Below are positions 6,738-38,211 of a stretch of DNA of 41,918 bases, piece by piece; within the stretch, counting starts at the first letter, position 1; each line of letters starts with the position of its first letter. The stretch is from Enterobacter phage Arya, in the sequence record KX231828.1. One strand, 5' to 3'. The notes under the pieces are model-generated. The model searched no databases. It was not told the DNA's origin and saw only the letters and a program-made list of their open reading frames with translations. Made by a program: the position numbers and the translations under genes.

Positions 6738-6766
6738 ATAGTGGCCGCTTCGGCGGCCATTTTTGC
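6738..6766 (+). terminator. rho-independent terminator after the capsid gene
   Basis: AGTGGCCGCTTCGGCGGCCATTTTTGCTT: a GC stem with a TTCG loop and a T-run, immediately 3' of the MCP stop. Confidence 0.7.
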
Positions 6767-7083
6767 TTAGAGGTAAGCTGATGAAATCCGTACTGCTTAA
6801 ACTGACTTCCGCCATTGTCATTGCTGGTTCCATTGCCAAAGCTGGCGAGGTTGTTGAAGTCACCGAACTGGAAGCAAAGAACCTGCTGGCACGCGGCAAA
6901 GGCGTGTTGAATGATGAACAGCCTGCTGATGAAGTTGATTTGGACCTGTCCAAAAAGACCAAAGATCAGTTGCTGGAAATCGCAGACAATCTGGAAATCG
7001 AAGGCGCGGCGAAGATGAACAAAGCGCAGTTGATTGAAGCTATCGAAGCCGCTGACAACGGCCAGGAAGAGGAAACCGAATAA
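6763..7083 (+). CDS. small head-associated protein with C-terminal HeH/Rho-N-like (SAP-like) motif
   Basis: The C-terminus TKDQLLEIADNLEIEGAAKMNKAQLIEAIEAA is a HeH/Rho-termination-N-like helix-extension-helix. It sits between the MCP and the head-completion genes. The ATG start is at about 6781. Confidence 0.5.
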   Translation: MLRGKLMKSVLLKLTSAIVIAGSIAKAGEVVEVTELEAKNLLARGKGVLNDEQPADEVDLDLSKKTKDQLLEIADNLEIEGAAKMNKAQLIEAIEAADNGQEEETE

Positions 7084-9584: not shown

Positions 9585-9923
9585 ATGAACGGAACAGACG
9601 CGACCACCGGAAAACCGCTGGATGGGCTGGCCCATTTGCAGCAATCAATAAAAGACATTCTGACCACGCCGATTGGTTCGCGTGTGATGCGGCGCGACTA
9701 TGGCAGCCGCCTGCCCCGCCTGATTGACGCACCAATGAACCGGGCCACGCTGATTGACCTGTACGCGGCCACAGCCGAAGCACTGGCCACCTGGGAACCG
9801 CGTTTCAGCGTTCAGCAGGTTGTTGCCGTATCAGCCGCACCAGGGCGCGTGGAATTGGAGGTTACAGGCGAATATCTGCCTGATGGCCAACAGGTAACGA
9901 TTGATGGAATAGTGGTGACATAA
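9585..9923 (+). CDS. baseplate protein W (P2 gpW / T4 gp25-like)
   Basis: A 112-aa ORF: LAHLQQSIKDILTTPIGSRVMRRDYGSRLPRLIDAPMN is the GPW/gp25 signature. Confidence 0.85.
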   Translation: MNGTDATTGKPLDGLAHLQQSIKDILTTPIGSRVMRRDYGSRLPRLIDAPMNRATLIDLYAATAEALATWEPRFSVQQVVAVSAAPGRVELEVTGEYLPDGQQVTIDGIVVT

Positions 9924-22759: not shown

Positions 22760-22857
22760 CAACAAACATTGTTGTTGCATAATTCTGAATCACGCAATAT
22801 CATTACCTACGAACCGGGCGGAATGACTGCCCGGATTACTAACGAGGTAATGCCCAC

Positions 22858-23553
22858 ATGAACACATCAAAATCTTTACTTGCGATCCTGGTTGAAGAAC
22901 TGCCGAAACTCGGTGGCTGGCCGGACTGTTGCCATGCAATTACGCAGGATTCAGACGCAGCTATCAACACCTACAATTCAGCAGATGGTTTAGAACTTAA
23001 TCAATATGGAACATGGCGTAGTTTAGACTCCTGGATGGATTACTGCATTACGGCAAAAAACGCGCCATGCCTGGCATCAGATTACGCCACCGCCATCATC
23101 ACCCGCGACCAGTACGAAGCCGCGCTGGCTGATACCGCAACAACTGACGGCTGGATTGATTGGGCTGGTGGTGAATGCCCGGTGGAGCGTGGAACGCTGG
23201 TTGATGTTCGCTATCGTGACAGTACAGCATACCCCGATAAATACGGTACACCAGCGCTGGTGGCGGGTGGATATGGGGCAACGGACCGTCACTGGTTACG
23301 CGAAGGGATGCGTAACGACATCATCGCCTACCGCCTGCACCAGCCGCAGGACGCCAACAGCCGCGCGAATGATGACAGGCTGGAAGCCGATCTGAATGAA
23401 TGCATTGGGCAGCCGCAAAGCAATGAACATGCTCGCGATGAAATCCTTTACGAATTGGCGAATTTTGCCGCCAGCACTGTGACCAGCCTTGATATTGGCG
23501 TGGCAACAAACATTGCAATATGGCTTTCTGATAAAGGTTATCGTAAACAATGA
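22858..23553 (+). CDS. hypothetical protein (moron 1, conserved hairpin+leader upstream)
   Basis: A 231-aa ORF of unrecognised family. It is preceded by the hairpin CCGGGC-N9-GCCCGG and the leader AACGAGGTAATGCCCACATG, which is shared with two other genes. Confidence 0.6.
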   Translation: MNTSKSLLAILVEELPKLGGWPDCCHAITQDSDAAINTYNSADGLELNQYGTWRSLDSWMDYCITAKNAPCLASDYATAIITRDQYEAALADTATTDGWIDWAGGECPVERGTLVDVRYRDSTAYPDKYGTPALVAGGYGATDRHWLREGMRNDIIAYRLHQPQDANSRANDDRLEADLNECIGQPQSNEHARDEILYELANFAASTVTSLDIGVATNIAIWLSDKGYRKQ

Positions 23554-23635
23554 TTGTCCGTGGTTCTGACCTGCCCACGGTTATTGCGTGGGCATCATTG
23601 ATTATCATCGCAATTGTATTGGGATCTTTTTAATT

Positions 23636-25242: not shown

Positions 25243-25271
25243 AGCCCGCCACTTCGGCGGGCTTTTTGTTG
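25243..25271 (+). terminator. rho-independent terminator
   Basis: CAGCCCGCCACTTCGGCGGGCTTTTTGTT, abutting the 3' end of the tRNA gene. Confidence 0.75.
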
Positions 25272-25461: not shown

Positions 25462-25692
25462 TCTGTTGCCAACCGCTTAGAAGGCATCAACCCGTTCACC
25501 CCGCGTGACCTGCGCCGAACCTGGAAAAGCCGCGCCGGTGACGCTGGCATTGACCGGTTCATGCGTGACATCATCCAGCAGCACGCGCAGACCGATACCG
25601 GCAGCAAACACTATGACCGGTTCGACTACCTTCCGCAGATGCGTGAAGCGATGAATAAATGGGAAACATGGTTGCAGAATGCTATAGCGTGA
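25462..25692 (+). pseudogene. 3' remnant (76 codons) of a tyrosine integrase gene
   Basis: ...NPFTPRDLRRTWKSRAGDAGIDRFMRDIIQQHAQTDTGSKHYDRFDYLPQMREAMNKWETWLQNAIA* matches the conserved C-terminus of P4/phage-type integrases (HDLRRT box and catalytic Y region). The frame is closed by TAA at 25459-25461 with no N-terminal ~250 aa present. Confidence 0.65.
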
Positions 25693-25914
25693 TGTAGAGT
25701 TATTTTATGCAGACGGTGGAGACGCTCCACGCCGGAGACGTAACCGGCACGCACCGTGATGCGCTTTTGCGAAACACTTTCCCCGTCTGGTGTTACCTCG
25801 CAAATCGTGAAAGCGCATCGCAGTGCGCCAGGCGTACTGATTGGAACTTACCCGACAATGAGTTTCCATTAAGGCAGGTGATCCGTATCTCGCATCACAG
25901 CGTTAAGTGACACA

Positions 25915-25942
25915 AAACCCCGCTTCGGCGGGGTTTTTATTT
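25915..25942. terminator. bidirectional rho-independent terminator
   Basis: AAAACCCCGCTTCGGCGGGGTTTTTATTT has an A-run and a T-run flanking a GC stem, between convergent plus-strand and minus-strand transcription units. Confidence 0.7.
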
Positions 25943-25944
25943 GG

Positions 25945-26628
25945 TCATTCTTCGGGGCTTTCGTCATCGCCTTGCGCTTTCATCGGCCCATGTTCCGGGC
26001 AGTGCGGCGCGCCAACATCCAGCCACTTTTGCGTAACGCGCACCGTGTAGCCGCATTCCTCGCATTCGCATTTTTTCAGCCTGGTTGACTGTTTCGGTTT
26101 TGCCGTGGACGCACCGCCGACCGGTGCCACTTCAATTTCTTCGCCTTCATCGTCATCGCCTGATTCATCCATGCCAATGCGCAGGCGCGGCACCTTAATG
26201 GACATCCCACGATCAAACGTCAGTTTGGCGTGAGGCATCGGCCCCAATTCATCCGGGAACGGTTTCACGTACTCTTTGAACGCTTCACCAGGCGTGGTGG
26301 CGGTCATCGGTCCATTCAGGCCAACAGCCTTGCAGACCTTCGCAAACGCACCCTTGTGGCCGCAGTCAAAGCCAACAGCGGCGTGTGTCAGTTCGTGCCA
26401 CAGGTGGTTTGCAACCATGAACGGTTCAACCTGGTCAGGCATGATGAATATTTCAAACGTGTTGTCACTGGAACACTTGCTATGCCAGCAATGTGCTGCC
26501 GTACTGGAACGCGCACCGCTGCTGCAAAAGCCAACTGACACGCGGAATTTAGGCAGTTCATAACCGAATTCTTTGAAACGTGGCGCGAACTTCGCAGCCA
26601 GAGCATTCAACCAACCTTCACGATCCAT
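25945..26628 (-). CDS. SprT-like zinc metalloprotease domain protein with C-terminal zinc ribbon
   Basis: It carries HELTH (HExxH) in WHELTHAAVGFDCGHKG and C-terminal CECEECGYTVRVTQ...HCPEHG. The leader TTACCTCGCAATT is shared with the recE-like gene. Confidence 0.65.
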   Translation of the reverse strand: MDREGWLNALAAKFAPRFKEFGYELPKFRVSVGFCSSGARSSTAAHCWHSKCSSDNTFEIFIMPDQVEPFMVANHLWHELTHAAVGFDCGHKGAFAKVCKAVGLNGPMTATTPGEAFKEYVKPFPDELGPMPHAKLTFDRGMSIKVPRLRIGMDESGDDDEGEEIEVAPVGGASTAKPKQSTRLKKCECEECGYTVRVTQKWLDVGAPHCPEHGPMKAQGDDESPEE

Positions 26629-26727
26629 TCTTTATTACCTCGCAATTCGTTTAAACGTAGTAAGATTTTATGCCAACAAAGAAAAACCCGCCACAGCGGC
26701 GGGTTTATTACTTAGAATGATTTGGAA

Positions 26728-28079: not shown

Positions 28080-29072
28080 TTACTGTTGGCCCATAACCTG
28101 TGCGTTCAGGTCATCGACGGTTTGCGCATCTTCACTGGTATCAACCGCTTGCTTGTCGTAAGCGCGTGCAGATTCCAACAATGATTGTTTGAACTCTTCC
28201 CCTAATGCCTTTTGATATTTGGCCGGGGTTTTGCCCCAACATTCCAGGGTGTAAGCTTCGCCGCGTTCAGTGACGTTGCGCAGGCGGTTGCGCCATTCTT
28301 CAACCTTCGGATCTAACTGTTTGGCACCATCAACCCAATCGCGGATTTGCTTTCCGTGCTGTGATGTCAGGTAGCCTTCCTGCCATTCGCCTGCGGTGCC
28401 GAAAATTTCTTCCAGACCGTCACCGGATTTTAGCACCTGGCGCTGTTTGCCGCCGTCATACATCATCACGCTGGCGGTCATTTCAAACATGAAATTCTTT
28501 TCGCAGATCGGCTGGATGCCCTGCGGAATGTAAACGGTCTTGCCGCCGTCCTTTTCCAGAATCACTTTTTCACGCGCGCGGGTGCAGCAGATGACGTGCA
28601 TGTTGGATTGCAGCATTGTGTTCATGAACTTTTTGTGTGCTGCCTTTGCGAAGTTATCGCGCTTGCCCTTCTGGCCCGGCAGCGGTTCACGCATTTCCAG
28701 AACACCGCCAATGCCTTCATATTCGTGGCTGGTGGAGTCAATCACCAGTACTTCAACGCCAAAGTCAGCGAACTGGCGGATTGCTTCGGCGTAGCGTTCC
28801 GGGCTGAACGGCGGTTCCAGATCACCGATGAAGAATTCCTGCACTTCGCCTTTTTCGTTTTTCAGACAATCGGCATACAGCGAACCACGGCGGTTTTCAG
28901 TATCGAGGAAACCGATTTTTGACGCGGAGAAATTTGACATGCCGTAGGCCAGTTCCAGCGCGGTGCGTGTCTTACCGCTGCCGCTGATACCTGCCAGACC
29001 AATCACCAGGCGTGCGCCTTCGCGCTTCGCTTTACGGATGTTAATCACTGCCATTATTAATTCCTCAAACAA
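28080..29072 (-). CDS. RecA-like P-loop ATPase (Sak4/AAA_24-like recombination protein) with C-terminal extension
   Basis: Walker A GLAGISGSGKT and Walker B VLVIDST are present. It sits between the SSB and RecE-like nuclease genes. An alternative ATG start is at 29054. Confidence 0.55.
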   Translation of the reverse strand: MFEELIMAVINIRKAKREGARLVIGLAGISGSGKTRTALELAYGMSNFSASKIGFLDTENRRGSLYADCLKNEKGEVQEFFIGDLEPPFSPERYAEAIRQFADFGVEVLVIDSTSHEYEGIGGVLEMREPLPGQKGKRDNFAKAAHKKFMNTMLQSNMHVICCTRAREKVILEKDGGKTVYIPQGIQPICEKNFMFEMTASVMMYDGGKQRQVLKSGDGLEEIFGTAGEWQEGYLTSQHGKQIRDWVDGAKQLDPKVEEWRNRLRNVTERGEAYTLECWGKTPAKYQKALGEEFKQSLLESARAYDKQAVDTSEDAQTVDDLNAQVMGQQ

Positions 29073-29115
29073 TTATTATTTATGGCCAGCACAACGCTGG
29101 CCGTCAGTAAATCAA

Positions 29116-30492
29116 TTACCAGTTTGGCCGTGGGCCATTGCTGCCGAAACTGGCACGAATTCCATCTTCATATGAAGATGATTCCAGCAGGTGCGCGTTT
29201 TTGTTCGCGTGCCAGGCTGGCATGTTGATGGTCTGGATCTTATCGCCGTAGCCTGGCCAGTTGTCGTTTGCCAGGCATTCAGCGTAAACCTTCAAATCAT
29301 GCTGATATGTAGCGCGGCCAATTTCACGGCTGGCAGAATCCAGGACGTACACACCAACCGCGTAAGGCGGTTTCTTTTCAACGGCGATGAATACGAACGC
29401 CTTCACGTTGCGGCCAGTGGCAATCTTCACGCCGTCTGTGTAGAACGGATCTTGCACGTCATAGCGCCAGTTGGCCATTGACTTGGCGAACCCTTCCGGG
29501 CTGGCGTCATCGGTGGTTTTCAGGTCAACCAGCACGTCATCTTCACGCCACCAGTCTGGACGGCAGCGGCACAGCACACCGGTGGTAGGATCGTTCCAGT
29601 ATACGGATTTTTCCGCTTCACCAGGTACGCTGGTAAGCAGTGCACCGGCAGCCGGGTGCGCATGAACTGCTGCGGCCATCGCGTGCAACTGTTCCCACAC
29701 TTCCGGTGACAGCACGATGCGGCCAGGGTTGTTTTCGGTCCATTCCGCCAGCACGTCAGACCACAGGCGCACAGGCTTACCGTTGGCGCTCAACCAGGCG
29801 GCCATATCGTGACGGCTGGCAGTGCTGGTGGACAGCACATAAGGGCGGCCATGTTCCTGCTGGTAAGCGTCAGTGATTTCAGACCACAGAACGACATCAA
29901 CGCCATTGGCGCGCAGCAGGTTTGCCAGGTCAGCGCGGCTGCCGCTGGTGGACAATAGGCCAGGGCGATCAACGTTCAACTGGTTGATGATGTCCTTAAG
30001 TGCTGGCGCTTTCAGTTCGTTAAGCTGTTCAGCAGACCAGGTTTCAACTGGCTGATTATCCAGGATGCGTTCAACCAGTTCGCCTTTATTGCCACCGGTC
30101 AGCAGTTTCGGCAGGCGGTCAGCGTTCAGTTCGTTAATTTTGGCCACCAGCACATCAGCATCACGCACGGCGTCAGGGTGTGCAGCTACGCGTTCAGCGT
30201 TGATTTCTTCAACCATCTGCACCAGCACTTCGCGATCTTCAATGGCGTCAGGAACGTCAGAGCGGCGCAGAGCAAGGCAATACGTATCAGTGAACACATC
30301 CGGTTCTAAAATCAGCGCGTGGGCAGCAGTCCCCAATTCCTGCGCTGCTGTTGGAACGCGGTCATTTTCCGCAGTGACTACAGCATGAAAGTGCATCGGG
30401 CTGCGGTGAATCAAATCCAGACCAGATTTACTAATGCCAGGGCCGCTATGGTATTCAGCGTTTGGAATACCTTCATAAACACCAGGTTTCAT
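29116..30492 (-). CDS. PD-(D/E)XK-family exonuclease (RecE / exodeoxyribonuclease VIII-like), with three SAP/HeH-like inserts
   Basis: The N-terminus MKPGVYEGIPNAEYHSGPGISKSGLDLIHRSPMHFHAVVTAENDRVPTAAQELGTAAHALILEP is the characteristic start of phage RecE-like/Cas4-like nucleases. The central region has repeated motifs LNELKAPALKDIINQLNVDRP, KINELNADRLPKLL and RADLANLLRANGVDV. Confidence 0.65.
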   Translation of the reverse strand: MKPGVYEGIPNAEYHSGPGISKSGLDLIHRSPMHFHAVVTAENDRVPTAAQELGTAAHALILEPDVFTDTYCLALRRSDVPDAIEDREVLVQMVEEINAERVAAHPDAVRDADVLVAKINELNADRLPKLLTGGNKGELVERILDNQPVETWSAEQLNELKAPALKDIINQLNVDRPGLLSTSGSRADLANLLRANGVDVVLWSEITDAYQQEHGRPYVLSTSTASRHDMAAWLSANGKPVRLWSDVLAEWTENNPGRIVLSPEVWEQLHAMAAAVHAHPAAGALLTSVPGEAEKSVYWNDPTTGVLCRCRPDWWREDDVLVDLKTTDDASPEGFAKSMANWRYDVQDPFYTDGVKIATGRNVKAFVFIAVEKKPPYAVGVYVLDSASREIGRATYQHDLKVYAECLANDNWPGYGDKIQTINMPAWHANKNAHLLESSSYEDGIRASFGSNGPRPNW

Positions 30493-30573
30493 TTGTTACC
30501 TCGCAATTGATTGATGATATAACGTGATGTAGCGTGAAAACGAAGCAAGTATAAATAAGTAATATTATTGCTG

Positions 30574-32701: not shown

Positions 32702-32809
32702 ATACCTGTGAATTGATAGTTATAAACAACTGGAAGGTTTAAGTATTTAAACGTAATATCTAATCACCGGCACAGATGGTGCCCAATAACAAAACGAGGT
32801 AATGCCCAA

Positions 32810-33100
32810 ATGACTACTGTAAATATTCGCAATGGTTTTGGTTTTCAAGAACTGCCAGCCGCTTTTGAAGGCACGATTCATGACGCAGATGGCTGCAAGT
32901 TTTTCATTGCAACAACCAATGATTTCAAGCTGACGGTTGACAGCGAACAAGAACACGGCGTGATCATCGCATTTGGACCTGACAGCATGAAAAATGACGG
33001 TGAACATTGCAGTGACGGCCTGGTGTTTTCGTCTAACGATGACAAGAAAATCATTGCTGCGCAGTTGCGAGAACTGGCTGATTGGTTCGAGCAGCAGTAA
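32810..33100 (+). CDS. hypothetical protein (moron 2, conserved hairpin+leader upstream)
   Basis: A 96-aa ORF preceded by the hairpin GGCAC-agatg-GTGCC and the leader CCAATAACAAAACGAGGTAATGCCCAAATG. Confidence 0.55.
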   Translation: MTTVNIRNGFGFQELPAAFEGTIHDADGCKFFIATTNDFKLTVDSEQEHGVIIAFGPDSMKNDGEHCSDGLVFSSNDDKKIIAAQLRELADWFEQQ

Positions 33101-33143: not shown

Positions 33144-33296
33144 ATGAAAACGTTTATTGAAGTTATCACGCTGGTTAAGACCGGATTTAACGCGGTCTGG
33201 CAACTGGCAATGGGCCTGCTGTGCCTCGGTATCGCGTTTGCGCTGGCTGGCTTCGCATACGCCATCATTAAAGCCGCTTTCTTTACGGGGGCATGA
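33144..33296 (+). CDS. small membrane protein (50 aa, one TM helix)
   Basis: MKTFIEVITLVKTGFNAVWQLAMGLLCLGIAFALAGFAYAIIKAAFFTGA, with an AGGTGA RBS 6 nt upstream. Confidence 0.45.
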   Translation: MKTFIEVITLVKTGFNAVWQLAMGLLCLGIAFALAGFAYAIIKAAFFTGA

Positions 33297-35004: not shown

Positions 35005-37305
35005 ATGAGTGCACAGCCAAATTACAAGGATTTGACCGAACAGGAAATTGCAGAGGCGCTTTCGTATATCGACGCCAGTTGCGACCGGGAAACCTGGGTA
35101 CGCATGGCAATGGCGGTCAAATCAGAATTGGGTGACGGTGGTTTCACCGTCTGGAATGACTGGTCAAAACAGTCTGGCAAATACGATACCAAATCAGCAC
35201 GCTACACCTGGCGCAGCGTTAAGCGTCACGGCGGCATTGCCATTGGCACGCTGATTGGTGAGGCGAAACTGTTTGGCTTTTCCCTGAACGATGCGGAACG
35301 CACCCCGCTGTCAGGTGAAGAAATCGCCGCACGTAAGCAGCGCCGCGAAGCAGAGGAGCGCGCCGAAGCCGAACGCCTGGCCGCATACCGTGCGAAGGCA
35401 GCCGAACAGGCACGCACCATTTGGGAATCTGCCGCTGACATCGAGGGCAGCGAACACCCGTACCTGTCACGCAAAGGCGTGAACGCGTTCGGGCTGCGTG
35501 TTGGCCGGTTCTGGACCGATAAGCGCAGCATTGATGGCGCACTGCTGATTCCTGTTCGTAACATTGACGGGCAGATCACCAGCGTTCAGGCCATCTTCCC
35601 GAACGAAAACCCGCAGTTGGGCCGTGACCGTGACTACCTGCCAGGCGGCCAGAAGCGTGGATGCTTCCACGTCATCGGCAACAAGCCAACCGGGCAGAAA
35701 CCCGTCATTGTGGTCTGTGAGGGCTACGCCACTGGTGCATCCATTCACCAGGCTACCGGGTTCTGTGTGGCCGTGGCATTCGATGACGGCAACCTGCCTA
35801 CTGTGGCCAGACTTCTGCGCCAGCAGTTCGGCAGCGCCACAATTGTTGTGGCTGCGGATAATGACCAGTGGACCGAAGGCAACCCCGGCGTTCACTTCGC
35901 GCGCCAGGCAGCTACAGCAGCCTGTGCAATCCTGGTGGTGCCAAAATTCGACGTAATGAGCGACCAGCCAACCGACTTCAATGACCTGCAAAAACTGCAA
36001 GGCATCGAAGAGGTAAGGCACCAAATCCAGGCGGTCATCCCTGAACCGGCAAATGATAATTTCCTGGATCTGGATTCCAACGTATCGCCGTTCGAATTCC
36101 CGCACCTGTCAGACAAGATGCAGCCGCTGAACACCTGGGAAAACCTGGATTGGATGTTGAGCCAGTACGGCATCACATCGCGTTACAACGAGATCAGCAA
36201 AGACGTGGTTGTTTCCATACCTGGGAAGGACTACGGCAACGACGCATCAGCCAACTGTTCCCTGGCGGAAATATCCAGCCTGTGCGCGCGTAACCGTATG
36301 CCAAAAGGTGACGTGGGCGATTACATCAAACTGATTGGCGTGGCCAACCGCTTCAACCCTGCGGCTGATTTCATCACGTCAAAGCCGTGGGATGGCACCA
36401 GCCGCATTTATGACCTGTGTGACACGCTGGAAACCGCGCCTGGGTTTGACCGCAGCCTGGTGTTGATGCTGGTTCGCCGCTGGCTGATTTCCGCCGTAGC
36501 CGCAGCCATGCAGCCAACCGGGTTCTGGTCCAAAGGCGTCCTGGTGCTACAGGGTGAACAATCCCTGGGTAAAACCGCATGGTTCCGCGCGCTGGTTCCT
36601 GACCTACACAGAAATCTGGTTAAAATCGGCGCAACTATCGATCCAAGTAATAAGGACAGCATCAGCAGTGCAATCGGTCACTGGATGGTTGAATTAGGCG
36701 AACTGGATGCGACGTTCCGCAAAGCCGACATTGCGCGCCTTAAGTCATTCATCAGCCAGGACCGTGATGACCTGCGCAGACCATATGACCGCCTGGAATC
36801 GAAGTACCAGCGCCGCACCGTGTTTTTTGCGTCAGTGAACCCGAAACACTTTCTGGCCGATGACACCGGGAACGTGCGCTGGTGGACCATCCCTGTAACA
36901 AGCGTGAACTATGAACACGACATTGACACACAACAATTGTGGGCCGAAGTGGCGCAACTGTTCCGTGACGGTGAACGCTGGTGGTTAGAACCACACGAAG
37001 AACAGGCGCTGGAACAGGTCAACCGTGACCACGAAGCGATTGACCCGGTAGAGGAAATGATCCTGTCACGTTATGAATGGGGTTGTGACCGCATTGGCGC
37101 TTACAGTGAGCAGACGGCCAGCCAGGTGCTGCAAACCATCGGGTTTGATAAGCCGAACAAATCACAGGCCACGAATTGCAGCAACGTGCTGCGTAAGCTG
37201 ACCGGCGAAGAACCGCGCAAGACCAAAAACGGGCGTTTCTTCAACCTGCCGCCGAAGGTGTTACAGCCTGATTACAGGCGGCCACAGGATGACGAGCCAT
37301 TTTAA
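35005..37305 (+). CDS. bifunctional primase-helicase, P4 alpha / D5-like (PriCT_2 N-terminus, TOPRIM, SF3 helicase)
   Basis: The N-terminus WNDWSKQSGKYDTKSARYTWRSV has a PriCT_2-like pattern. TOPRIM is PVIVVCEGYATGASIHQATG...VVAADNDQ. The SF3 helicase Walker A is VLVLQGEQSLGKTAWF. The C-terminal about 100 aa is a putative DNA-binding domain. Confidence 0.85.
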   Translation: MSAQPNYKDLTEQEIAEALSYIDASCDRETWVRMAMAVKSELGDGGFTVWNDWSKQSGKYDTKSARYTWRSVKRHGGIAIGTLIGEAKLFGFSLNDAERTPLSGEEIAARKQRREAEERAEAERLAAYRAKAAEQARTIWESAADIEGSEHPYLSRKGVNAFGLRVGRFWTDKRSIDGALLIPVRNIDGQITSVQAIFPNENPQLGRDRDYLPGGQKRGCFHVIGNKPTGQKPVIVVCEGYATGASIHQATGFCVAVAFDDGNLPTVARLLRQQFGSATIVVAADNDQWTEGNPGVHFARQAATAACAILVVPKFDVMSDQPTDFNDLQKLQGIEEVRHQIQAVIPEPANDNFLDLDSNVSPFEFPHLSDKMQPLNTWENLDWMLSQYGITSRYNEISKDVVVSIPGKDYGNDASANCSLAEISSLCARNRMPKGDVGDYIKLIGVANRFNPAADFITSKPWDGTSRIYDLCDTLETAPGFDRSLVLMLVRRWLISAVAAAMQPTGFWSKGVLVLQGEQSLGKTAWFRALVPDLHRNLVKIGATIDPSNKDSISSAIGHWMVELGELDATFRKADIARLKSFISQDRDDLRRPYDRLESKYQRRTVFFASVNPKHFLADDTGNVRWWTIPVTSVNYEHDIDTQQLWAEVAQLFRDGERWWLEPHEEQALEQVNRDHEAIDPVEEMILSRYEWGCDRIGAYSEQTASQVLQTIGFDKPNKSQATNCSNVLRKLTGEEPRKTKNGRFFNLPPKVLQPDYRRPQDDEPF

Positions 37306-37308
37306 TCA

Positions 37309-37336
37309 ATAACCCGCTTCGGCGGGTTTTTCGTTT
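37309..37336 (+). terminator. rho-independent terminator
   Basis: AACCCGCTTCGGCGGGTTTTTCGTTTATT, immediately after the primase stop. Confidence 0.75.
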
Positions 37337-37577
37337 ATTGATAGGTATAAACGATTAGCCCATTTAAGAAGTTAAACGTATAGTTATTACATAGGGCGGC
37401 GGCAGGATGCAGCCGGAGAGGAGCAACGCAGGGGCTTGATCGTAGTGTCAGGATTCCCAACCGTGAGGCCGAACATTGGACACTCGCCGAAAGGCAGAAC
37501 GCTTACCAATGACATCGAACCGAGGCTACCGACGAAGCACGACGCCCACAATTAACAGCATCATGAGGGGCAGCGCG

Positions 37578-37793
37578 ATGGCGGCAGAAACCAGCAAAGC
37601 AATCAGCGTAAAGACAAACAGCAGAGGCATCAAATATTGCCTGGTCAGCAACAGTCAGGGATTTGAAGTCTGGAAGCTGTGCGAAAACTATTGCCGTCAG
37701 ACCAAAGGCGGAATTCGTAAAACGTGGCGCTATGTCGAAAAAGGCATGACGCAGGAAGCGGCTGAAAAACTGTTTAAACGCCGCACGAAATAA
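37578..37793 (+). CDS. small basic hypothetical protein (71 aa)
   Basis: MAAETSKAISVKTNSRGIKYCLVSNSQGFEVWKLCENYCRQTKGGIRKTWRYVEKGMTQEAAEKLFKRRTK. GAGGGG lies 7 nt upstream of the ATG at 37578. The track ORF starts at 37476. Confidence 0.45.
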   Translation: MAAETSKAISVKTNSRGIKYCLVSNSQGFEVWKLCENYCRQTKGGIRKTWRYVEKGMTQEAAEKLFKRRTK

Positions 37794-37842
37794 CCAACCC
37801 TGCCCCACTTCGCGTGGGGCCAATAAAAACGAGGTAACACCC

Positions 37843-38211
37843 ATGTTAGTGAAAGAGACAAACGGAAAAATCAATTTCATCGACCGCAATGATTGTTTCG
37901 TTGGGTTCGATTATGCACAGGACTGCTGTGAATCGTTCGGCTGGTACTTGAACACCATCTGGTCAACCGAAGCATCACCGCTTTTCACCAGCGAAAACTT
38001 TGCAGACGAGAAAGCACTGGATGGGTTCTGGTTCGACACTGCAACAGATCCGGTTAGTGTTGACGATGACGCCAACGACGAGGGCGGAACGGTAGCATTC
38101 CGCTGCGTGAACTCCGCTGGCGATGTTCTATGGCTGCACCTGTACAACGCACATAACGGCTACTACTCGCACGGCTGGGAAACATCCTGGGGCCAGGCTG
38201 GCAGCCTGTGA
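37843..38211 (+). CDS. hypothetical protein (moron 3, conserved hairpin+leader upstream)
   Basis: A 122-aa ORF preceded by the hairpin CCCCAC-TTCG-CGTGGGG and the leader CCAATAAAAACGAGGTAACACCCATG. Confidence 0.55.
   Translation: MLVKETNGKINFIDRNDCFVGFDYAQDCCESFGWYLNTIWSTEASPLFTSENFADEKALDGFWFDTATDPVSVDDDANDEGGTVAFRCVNSAGDVLWLHLYNAHNGYYSHGWETSWGQAGSL

Follow-up and report, generated by a model that had tools for sequence, protein, structure and literature searches.

A portable hairpin-leader cassette before three accessory genes of Enterobacter phage Arya and its relatives

In the genome of Enterobacter phage Arya, three genes of unrelated families are each preceded by a GC-rich hairpin and a nearly constant leader. 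This raises the question of whether the arrangement is a unit in its own right or only ordinary parts lying side by side. The window analyzed here (41,918 bases) is the whole Arya genome, and BI096_gp27 of this phage is identical to the protein encoded at the first of the three places (site 1). We conclude that the arrangement is a real, lineage-specific, and portable hairpin-leader cassette, a small-scale version of the idea represented by the promoter-early stem-loop (PeSL) cassettes of T4-type phages (Arbiol et al., 2010, PMC2839356; Comeau et al., 2014, PMC4122927) and by the start-associated sequences (SAS) and extended SAS of cluster K mycobacteriophages (Pope et al., 2011, PMC3203893). 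The relatives of Arya form the Jilinvirus group (Iiscvirinae) and include HeidiAbel_Bas97, PT1, KA2-1, ECOO78, ep3, ECO1230-10, and Alux-21. Members of this group are small myoviruses whose lysogeny module is decaying and whose lifestyle has been termed "enigmatic" (bioRxiv 10.1101/2024.09.12.612763), and an integrase pseudogene of Arya was described in the published genome note (PMC5754474). The structural genes of Arya run rightward up to ~25.1 kb, followed by a leftward early operon from the recE-like to the SprT-like gene (25.9–31.1 kb) and a rightward early/replication region from 31.3 kb onward.

All three arrangements of hairpin, leader, and ATG listed in a preliminary description of this DNA were present on the plus strand, at 22814–22860 (site 1), 32769–32812 (site 2), and 37802–37845 (site 3), with a common layout of a GC hairpin, an A/CA-rich spacer, AACGAGGTAA-YRCCC, and the ATG. 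At site 1, an 8-bp hairpin with the stem CCGGGCGG (22814–22821)/CTGCCCGG (22827–22834) was followed by the spacer ATTACTAA, AACGAGGTAA (22841–22850, with the 8-mer CGAGGTAA at 22843–22850), TGCCCAC, and ATG 22858 of a 231-amino acid gene (22858–23553; phrog_26870). The hairpin of site 2, GGCAC-AGATG-GTGCC, was real, although its earlier coordinates were one base too low (true stem 32769–32783, with arms at 32769–32773 and 32779–32783); it was followed by CAATAACAAAA, CGAGGTAA (32795–32802), TGCCCAA, and ATG 32810 of a 96-amino acid gene (32810–33100; phrog_28115). Site 3 lay downstream of an open reading frame (ORF) ending with TAA at 37791–37793 and comprised the hairpin GCCCCAC-TTCGC-GTGGGGC (stem 37802–37808/37814–37820), CAATAAAAA, CGAGGTAA (37830–37837), CACCC, and ATG 37843 of a 122-amino acid DUF7448 gene (37843–38211). 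The leaders were nearly identical as described, with 16 contiguous bases common to sites 1 and 2 (AACGAGGTAATGCCCA) and CCAATAA plus AAAACGAGGTAA common to sites 2 and 3, but the CCAATAA part was missing at site 1.

The repeat was more frequent than expected. AACGAGGTAA occurred exactly three times in the window, always at sites 1–3, and allowing one mismatch gave six matches against 1.39 expected, a number reached in none of 100 shuffles; a repeat finder likewise grouped the three sites into one family (D13). In a manual alignment, seven of the eight bases of AACGAGGT were complementary to the 3′ end of 16S rRNA. The GAGGT Shine–Dalgarno (SD) sequence, which had been called strong, was among the strongest quarter in the genome but not the strongest of all. 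A mini-ORF (ATG CCC ACA TGA) within the TGCCC leaders was judged from the sequence to be unused, because its ATG is 1–2 nucleotides (nt) from the SD and is missing in the CACCC variants.

We then determined the distribution of the cassette using a covariance model (R1), as had been proposed, seeded with the ten copies that MAFFT placed in register (5-nt loops); copies with 3-, 4-, or 10-nt loops, out of register in MAFFT, were realigned to R1. In the window, R1 matched sites 1–3 only (67, 59, and 45 bits, respectively). At E ≤ 0.05, it found 34 copies, including copies outside the seed, across 17 Jilinvirus-like sources, some of them metagenomic genomes found by way of the site 1 protein (1,407 homologues, many of those listed on contigs of 40–48 kb), and orthologues were present in every Jilinvirus-like genome fetched. 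Nothing significant was found in the more distant phages MQ-4 and Persinger. Each of three Lastavirus loci gave one match, and the other 60 of 61 IMG/VR loci carrying a leader-like pattern gave no significant match. The Lastavirus copy, of the site 1 type, occurs once each in the Klebsiella phages LASTA (9587–9629) and SopranoGao before an unrelated 107-amino acid gene, and consists of a −10-like element, an anti-SD segment, a new stem, CAATAAC, and AACGAGGTAACACCC-ATG. In IMG/VR, most matches to the leader core, or to the A-rich spacer plus the core, were unrelated stretches of coding sequence or ordinary ribosome sites. Combining the anti-SD segment with the leader gave about as many matches as estimated for chance, of which only the Lastavirus copies passed R1. 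No prophage relatives were found in 5,426 complete E. coli genomes, and a scan of species-representative genomes found no relatives. A search of Rfam over the whole window brought only a tRNA to score, and a permissive Rfam search of 37300–37860 gave nothing at site 3.

The pairing of the stems was kept while their sequences changed; the covariation that the preliminary description had proposed as a test was present. On the 34-copy alignment, 94% of the cells were paired and four of the six pairs were changed on both sides; the seed alignment gave a similar picture, the two together ranging over 91–94% paired and 4–5 pairs changed on both sides. The covariation score was 0.41 compared with 0.16 in shuffles (0 of 500) and 0.02–0.11 with a slid partner, figures that overstate independence because the alignment follows the model and contains related sequences. 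In qualitative terms, the result is robust: no fewer than six unrelated stems, namely CCGGGCGG/CTGCCCGG, CCCGGCGG/CTGCCGGG, GGCAC/GTGCC, CCCCAC/GTGGGG, GCCCC/GGGGC, and GCGCA/TGCGC, keep their pairing at the same place before the leader. For example, HeidiAbel site 2 has the leader and cargo gene of ep3 with an entirely different stem (GCCCC/GGGGC), and in KA2-1-type genomes a compensatory change turns the site 1 stem CCGGGC/GCCCGG into CCCGGC/GCCGGG.

We next compared the window with nine relatives, seven of them complete genomes, and found that nucleotide similarity ended at the 3′ edge of the cassette. All seven complete genomes aligned through the site 1 and site 2 cassettes, and similarity collapsed in the first codons of the cargo gene. 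Site 3 formed a similarity island of ~85 nt against ECOO78, ep3, and two metagenomic genomes, with flanks that found no alignment in any of the nine; Arya and ECOO78 have non-homologous genes upstream of this site. Different cargo, which the preliminary description had suggested looking for, was found at two of the sites: site 2 preceded four protein families (MTTVN.., MARLT.., M(Y/K)(K/Q)FAKLF.., and MAKYIS..), in orthologues with the variant leader CAACAACAAAAGAGGAAACACCC, and site 3 preceded four or five. The expectation failed at site 1, where the relatives carry one modular gene family with a variable N-terminal part. The leader dinucleotide (TG, CA, or TA) differed between orthologous copies, such as site 2 of Arya and ECOO78, which suggests exchange between copies. 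The earlier idea of a portable expression cassette is supported, with the hairpin and leader kept in all relatives, the cargo swapped, and a copy before an unrelated gene in LASTA; these data support portability within a narrow host range.

LASTA also carries tRNA-Arg(tct) beside an integrase fragment (28980–29894), as Arya carries tRNA-Arg(TCT) by its truncated integrase. The shared tRNA-Arg, truncated integrase, and cassette suggest module exchange between Lastavirus and the Arya group. A protein of LASTA is annotated as a CsrA-like regulator. In another group of phages or prophages the same design recurs independently; there, a GCCC-N4-GGGC hairpin, a 13-nt spacer, and CAATAAAAAAACGAGGTAA precede an ATG 7–8 nt further on; it was found in 14 IMG/VR contigs before at least four different N-termini.

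The three sites share hairpin and leader as described, but they are not equivalent with respect to promoters. A candidate sigma-70 promoter precedes the site 1 stem on the plus strand at 22775–22803, with TTGCAT (22775–22780), a 17-nt spacer, and TATCAT (22798–22803). In a position-weight scan it scored in the top 0.1–0.3% of random positions in every orthologue, with the form TTGCA[T/A]-17/18-TATCAT. At site 2, an AT-rich promoter module (32712–32759, plus strand) contains ATTGATAGTTATAAAC (32712–32727), a weak −35 TGGAAG (32731–32736), and the −10 TAATAT (32754–32759); scores were in the top 0–1.4% of random positions in all orthologues (e.g., TTGGCG-19-TATAGT). The −10-like hexamer of site 2 (TAATAT, TATTAT, TATAGT, or TATATT) stood at one fixed distance before the stem in 11 of the 11 orthologues scored; that the hexamer varies while its position stays constant speaks for a genuine −10, with transcription starting 0–3 nt before the stem. 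At both sites, the predicted −10 ends 8–10 nt before the stem, which would place the hairpin at the transcript's 5′ end. The same scan detected no promoter-like site before site 3, which scored at background together with two other intergenic hairpins; site 3 and the HeidiAbel variant of site 2 are predicted to be intergenic inside a transcript.

The AT-rich module of site 2, ATTGATAG(G/T)TATAAAC...TTTAAG...TA(A/T)(T/A)(A/G)T, is duplicated on the plus strand (32712–32759 and 37337–37383), its two occurrences in the window comparing with 0.06 expected. The copies lie after the helicase gene and after the primase terminator and are kept at both places in all relatives. Because they combine a good −10 with a poor −35, they may be activator-dependent promoters of two accessory-gene slots. 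A palindrome, CAACAAACATTGTTG (22760–22774), overlaps the site 1 promoter at its upstream (−35) side. Palindromes of the types CAACAA-N3-TTGTTG and AACAAT-N-ATTGTT are enriched in the window (16 against 3.8 expected; 0 of 100 shuffles); those at 22760–22774 and 23545–23557 bracket the site 1 gene, and others lie at 653, 3432, 21336, 28176, and 41240. They may be operators or ParB-like binding sites.

Site 1 has one additional component. The anti-SD segment CATTACCT (22801–22808, plus strand) overlaps the −10 hexamer and is complementary to AGGTAATG (22845–22852) across the SD, and the fold z-score of the site was −4.5. Across six orthologues and LASTA, the energy for opening the SD and start was 7.3–9.9 kcal/mol in transcripts starting 60–120 nt upstream and 1.7–5.0 kcal/mol in transcripts starting at the hairpin; the same computation gave no such difference for sites 2 and 3. 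A terminator scan found none between the tail genes and site 1, so late read-through mRNA should carry the closed form. Such mRNA would hide the ribosome site, and the shorter transcript from the gene's own promoter would expose it, giving a predicted promoter-gated translation of the site 1 gene. Promoter-dependent occlusion of the ribosome site is established for the T4 genes e, soc, 49, and I-TevI (PMC3014915). As in these genes, the 5′ strand of the SD-hiding helix at site 1 overlaps the gene's own promoter, and only transcripts started upstream should form the helix; unlike in these genes, the predicted timing is reversed, with the late read-through mRNA silenced, and a second, inner hairpin is nested inside the helix.

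With moderate confidence, we interpret the three cassettes as related copies of a lineage-specific expression slot that are also recombination joints. The leader would supply a ready-made translation start to whichever gene follows; its A/CA-rich spacer, between the GC hairpin and the long SD, is unstructured. At sites 1 and 2, the hairpin would be the 5′-terminal stem-loop of the cargo gene's own transcript, a position that protects and stabilizes mRNA against decay in E. coli; the T7 gene 10 leader has the same layout of a stem-loop, an A/U-rich spacer, and a strong SD. At site 3, the same hairpin and leader would lie between two genes of one transcript. The cassette of ~50 nt would also serve as a homologous joint where relatives exchange accessory genes, because it is conserved while its neighbors are not.

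Several points weigh against this interpretation. Where transcription starts, how stable the mRNA is, and whether translation depends on the promoter are all matters of prediction; the −35 elements of site 2 are weak, and the spacers vary between 17 and 19 nt. The covariation alignment is model-fitted with many close relatives among its sequences, and a single compensatory change was observed at site 1. The SD sequences are strong yet not the strongest, and the ribosome sites folded with their upstream context are not unusually open. Hairpins occupy most intergenic gaps, and the link between hairpin and leader may partly reflect generic gap design. The interpretation also leaves unaccounted for both the conserved YRCCC between SD and ATG and a leader-like core without a gene at 25793–25803.

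An alternative that we regard as unlikely is that the leader is only a preferred strong ribosome site next to ordinary hairpins, its likeness being due to shared descent or convergence and the whole having no function as a unit. GC hairpins were present in 11 of the ~16 intergenic gaps of Arya, so a hairpin alone is generic and not specific to sites 1–3; SD strength is ordinary for the top quarter of genes, and A-rich spacers followed by CGAGGTAA leaders are ordinary ribosome sites in many unrelated phages. The 8-mer CGAGGTAA itself occurs six times in the window (at the three sites, in the leaders of the recE-like and SprT-like genes, and at 25793–25800 on the minus strand). The shorter related SD context reported earlier before the latter two genes was recovered as the leader AATTGCGAGGTAA, of the form CGAGG(T/A)AA, on the minus strand without a hairpin: at 30496–30508 before the recE-like gene (ATG 30492), downstream of a strong promoter (TTGACA-18-TATACT, 30577–30548), and at 26635–26647 before the SprT-like gene (ATG 26628), with a terminator upstream (26706–26684). 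The earlier statement that the arrangement does not precede structural genes stands for the full form, found only at the three accessory genes, but not for a reduced form after the capsid gene, where a terminator hairpin is followed by GAGGTAA and an ATG (6743–6783). The full form is therefore specific, but its component parts are not unique. Against generic parts, the identity extends 16–19 nt past what an SD needs and includes the non-pairing YRCCC; at sites 2 and 3 the stem always ends 0–2 nt before CAAYAA, and where the stem sequence was replaced, a new stem stands in its place. Moreover, the cassette persists as an island between unrelated genes and also occurs in Lastavirus.

It is quite improbable that the hairpins are attenuators or terminators that insulate the accessory genes, as in PeSLs, with the leader merely the ribosome site of the next gene. 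Each hairpin does come after the end of a preceding unit (tail gene D, the helicase, or the ORF ahead of site 3), and PeSL stem-loops cut reporter expression like a strong terminator (PMC2839356). However, none of the three stems is followed by a U-tract on either strand, A-rich sequence standing there instead, and Arya uses canonical T-run terminators elsewhere (e.g., at 25243, 37311, and 6743). The stems were accordingly rejected as intrinsic (Rho-independent) terminators, because no U-run follows them; none of the three appears in the terminator scan. Moreover, the stem lies downstream of the predicted −10 at sites 1 and 2 and would thus attenuate the gene's own transcript too.

The preliminary description had also raised a shared RNA-binding regulator or an RNase site; we found no candidate regulator, and the data require none. 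We give little credence to the idea that the core CGAGGTAAYRCC is bound by a single trans-acting regulator (either a phage protein or antisense RNA) that co-regulates the genes carrying it. The core is conserved beyond the SD, and its two variable positions are always a pyrimidine followed by a purine (TG, CA, or TA). The same 12–13-nt core lies in the apical part of a conserved long hairpin in the lysogeny remnant. There, an interval at 25540–25945 comprises the 3′ remnant of the integrase gene and a conserved 190-nt block (25748–25938) ending in a bidirectional terminator. The block is a long inverted repeat with one compensatory change that encloses the invariant leader-like core GCGAGGTAACACC, so RNA of its plus strand, which reads GGUGUUACCUCGCAA, would be antisense to every leader. 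A possible fourth, degenerate copy of the cassette lies inside it on the minus strand (25788–25828), with the small hairpin GCGCA-CTGCGA-TGCGC, TTTCACGATTTG, and CGAGGTAACACC including CGAGGTAA at 25800–25793.

Against a regulator, no candidate RNA-binding protein was found, and neither strand of the block is favored (−55.5 versus −54.4 kcal/mol, with mixed wobble evidence). The core at 25793–25800 lacks a start codon in Arya, and in relatives it is followed at a suitable distance by ATG (KA2-1 and L266) or TTG (HeidiAbel type) and a short ORF, which makes the core more simply another ribosome site. The block may instead be an attP arm: it contains three CGCATCRC(A/G)G repeats, and the region between the integrase gene and the block varies among relatives and ends in Alux-21 in an abutting 3′ fragment of a tRNA, as expected for attP. 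A sib-like 3′ element of the integrase mRNA or a small RNA are other candidates for what the block may be. Pairing of GGUGUUACCUCGCAA with the leaders could tolerate the TG, CA, and TA variants through G-U pairs, but GAGGAAACACCC leader variants would mismatch the putative antisense RNA, and the block shows no matching change. Hence a dedicated regulator recognizing CGAGGTAAYRCC, with the plus-strand RNA of 25748–25938 as its candidate and apical GGUGUUACCUCGCAA pairing across the SD of five or six CGAGGTAA leaders, is very improbable; if true, the accessory genes would belong, together with the recE-like and SprT-like genes, to a single post-transcriptional regulon linked to the lysogeny module.

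Returning to the expression slot, we compared the cassettes with known systems. Like PeSLs, they are short conserved intergenic composites with the order of an upstream stop, AT-rich DNA, a sigma-70-like promoter (in Arya a predicted one, at sites 1 and 2), a GC stem-loop, an SD, and a start codon; in one PeSL subclass the stem-loop comes just after the −10. A stable GC stem-loop lies inside each intergenic cassette, followed by the SD and start of an orphan gene in a variable region; in both systems these positions coincide with indels or replacements between close relatives. In contrast, Arya is a 42-kb Jilinvirus and not a T4-type myovirus, it has three copies instead of ~50, its promoter-like sites are weak to moderate instead of very strong and absent at site 3, and the conserved part is the translated-leader end instead of the promoter. 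Terminator activity has been shown for PeSL stem-loops, and mini-circles likewise belong to the PeSL side of the comparison.

The likeness to SAS lies in the leader. Both are asymmetric conserved motifs ending in CCC, with an SD core and flanks unable to pair with 16S rRNA. Both precede only some of the non-structural genes, of different families, SAS at 3–8 nt from the ATG and AACGAGGTAAYRCCC in Arya at 0–3 nt from the ATG of three early/accessory genes. An inverted repeat immediately precedes roughly half of the SAS sites, whose function has been suggested to concern translation. However, the Arya leader does not match the SAS consensus GGGATAGGAGCCC, and SAS number 11–19 copies per genome. 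The upstream inverted repeat of extended SAS has a conserved 17-bp consensus, and its variation does not support an RNA hairpin, whereas the Arya stems differ and covary. Since the cassettes lack defining features of both PeSLs and SAS or extended SAS, we did not assign them to either.

Morons, defined as a gene with its promoter and terminator, move as a unit without conserved linkers; those of lambdoid phages are said to have been treated by Juhala et al. in 2000. The site 1 gene resembles a moron in being an accessory gene with its own predicted promoter between conserved modules, after the tail genes. In Arya, however, it is the linker that is conserved, with changing genes behind it, and no terminator separates the site 1 gene from the next genes, the first being at 25243.

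The cargo proteins belong to phage families without assigned function in PHROGs and Pfam (phrog_26870, phrog_28115, and phrog_10011/DUF7448). They had been suggested to be anti-defense or host-takeover factors, for which there is no evidence either way: PADLOC, NCBIfam, and a sequence search of the Protein Data Bank (PDB) gave no match, and an AlphaFold2 model of the site 1 protein (48 sequences; predicted local distance difference test score (pLDDT) 68.5, predicted template modeling score (pTM) 0.42) had no Foldseek match in the PDB at E ≤ 0.001. Beside the cargo genes, a hydrophobic ORF of 27 codons (MIVRGSDLPTVIAWASLIIIAIVLGSF; 23550–23633, plus strand) overlaps the stop of the site 1 gene (ATGA); it is absent from the annotations of the fetched relatives and conserved in them at the protein level. 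It ends just before the start of the ParB-like gene, a start that is then ATG 23636 and not GTG 23588. A similar hydrophobic ORF of 50 codons lies 3′ of the site 2 gene (~33145–33296), after another hairpin.

Two further elements were observed elsewhere in the window. Upstream of an ORF, at the predicted start of the post-primase promoter, a structured-RNA-like element of ~150 nt (37392–37545, plus strand; core 37402–37466) was 78–94% identical in 170 phage records from unrelated genera, mostly unannotated, including Dhillonvirus, Warwickvirus, Changchunvirus, Sortsnevirus, Murrayvirus, and Sodalis phage SO-1. In KA2-1, the element is located after the helicase instead. Invariant single-stranded blocks (GGAGAGGAGCAACGCAGGGGC, CAGGATTCCCAACCGTGA, GAGAACGC, and AGGCYACCGACGAAG) alternate with helices that differ in sequence in nearly all lineages yet remain complementary (e.g., CATTGG/CCAATG, ACGCAC/GTGCG, CCAGGT/ACCTGG, and CATGAT/ATCATG). 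The element had no match in Rfam and may be a new leader RNA or riboswitch-like motif. In addition, the 18-mer TGACACCCCGCACGAAGA occurs in four exact copies on the plus strand (2509, 5261, 9534, and 16418) against 0.01 expected. Two copies fall within coding sequence and are read in the same frame (..DTPHEE..); the other two are intergenic, and one of them forms a hairpin with TCGTGCGGG. Its 11-mer core ACACCCCGCAC is absent from HeidiAbel, KA2-1, ECOO78, MQ-4, and Persinger, and the motif is therefore specific to Arya.

The cassettes provide a small-genome example of accessory-gene swapping at conserved regulatory linkers, until now documented mainly for the PeSLs of T4-type phages. For this little-studied phage group, they predict a 5′-terminal hairpin at the start of the site 1 and site 2 transcripts, translation of the site 1 gene from its own promoter alone and not from late read-through mRNA, and the arrival of new genes at the three slots. 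In engineering, the leader can serve as a natural site for insertions that is already equipped with expression signals.

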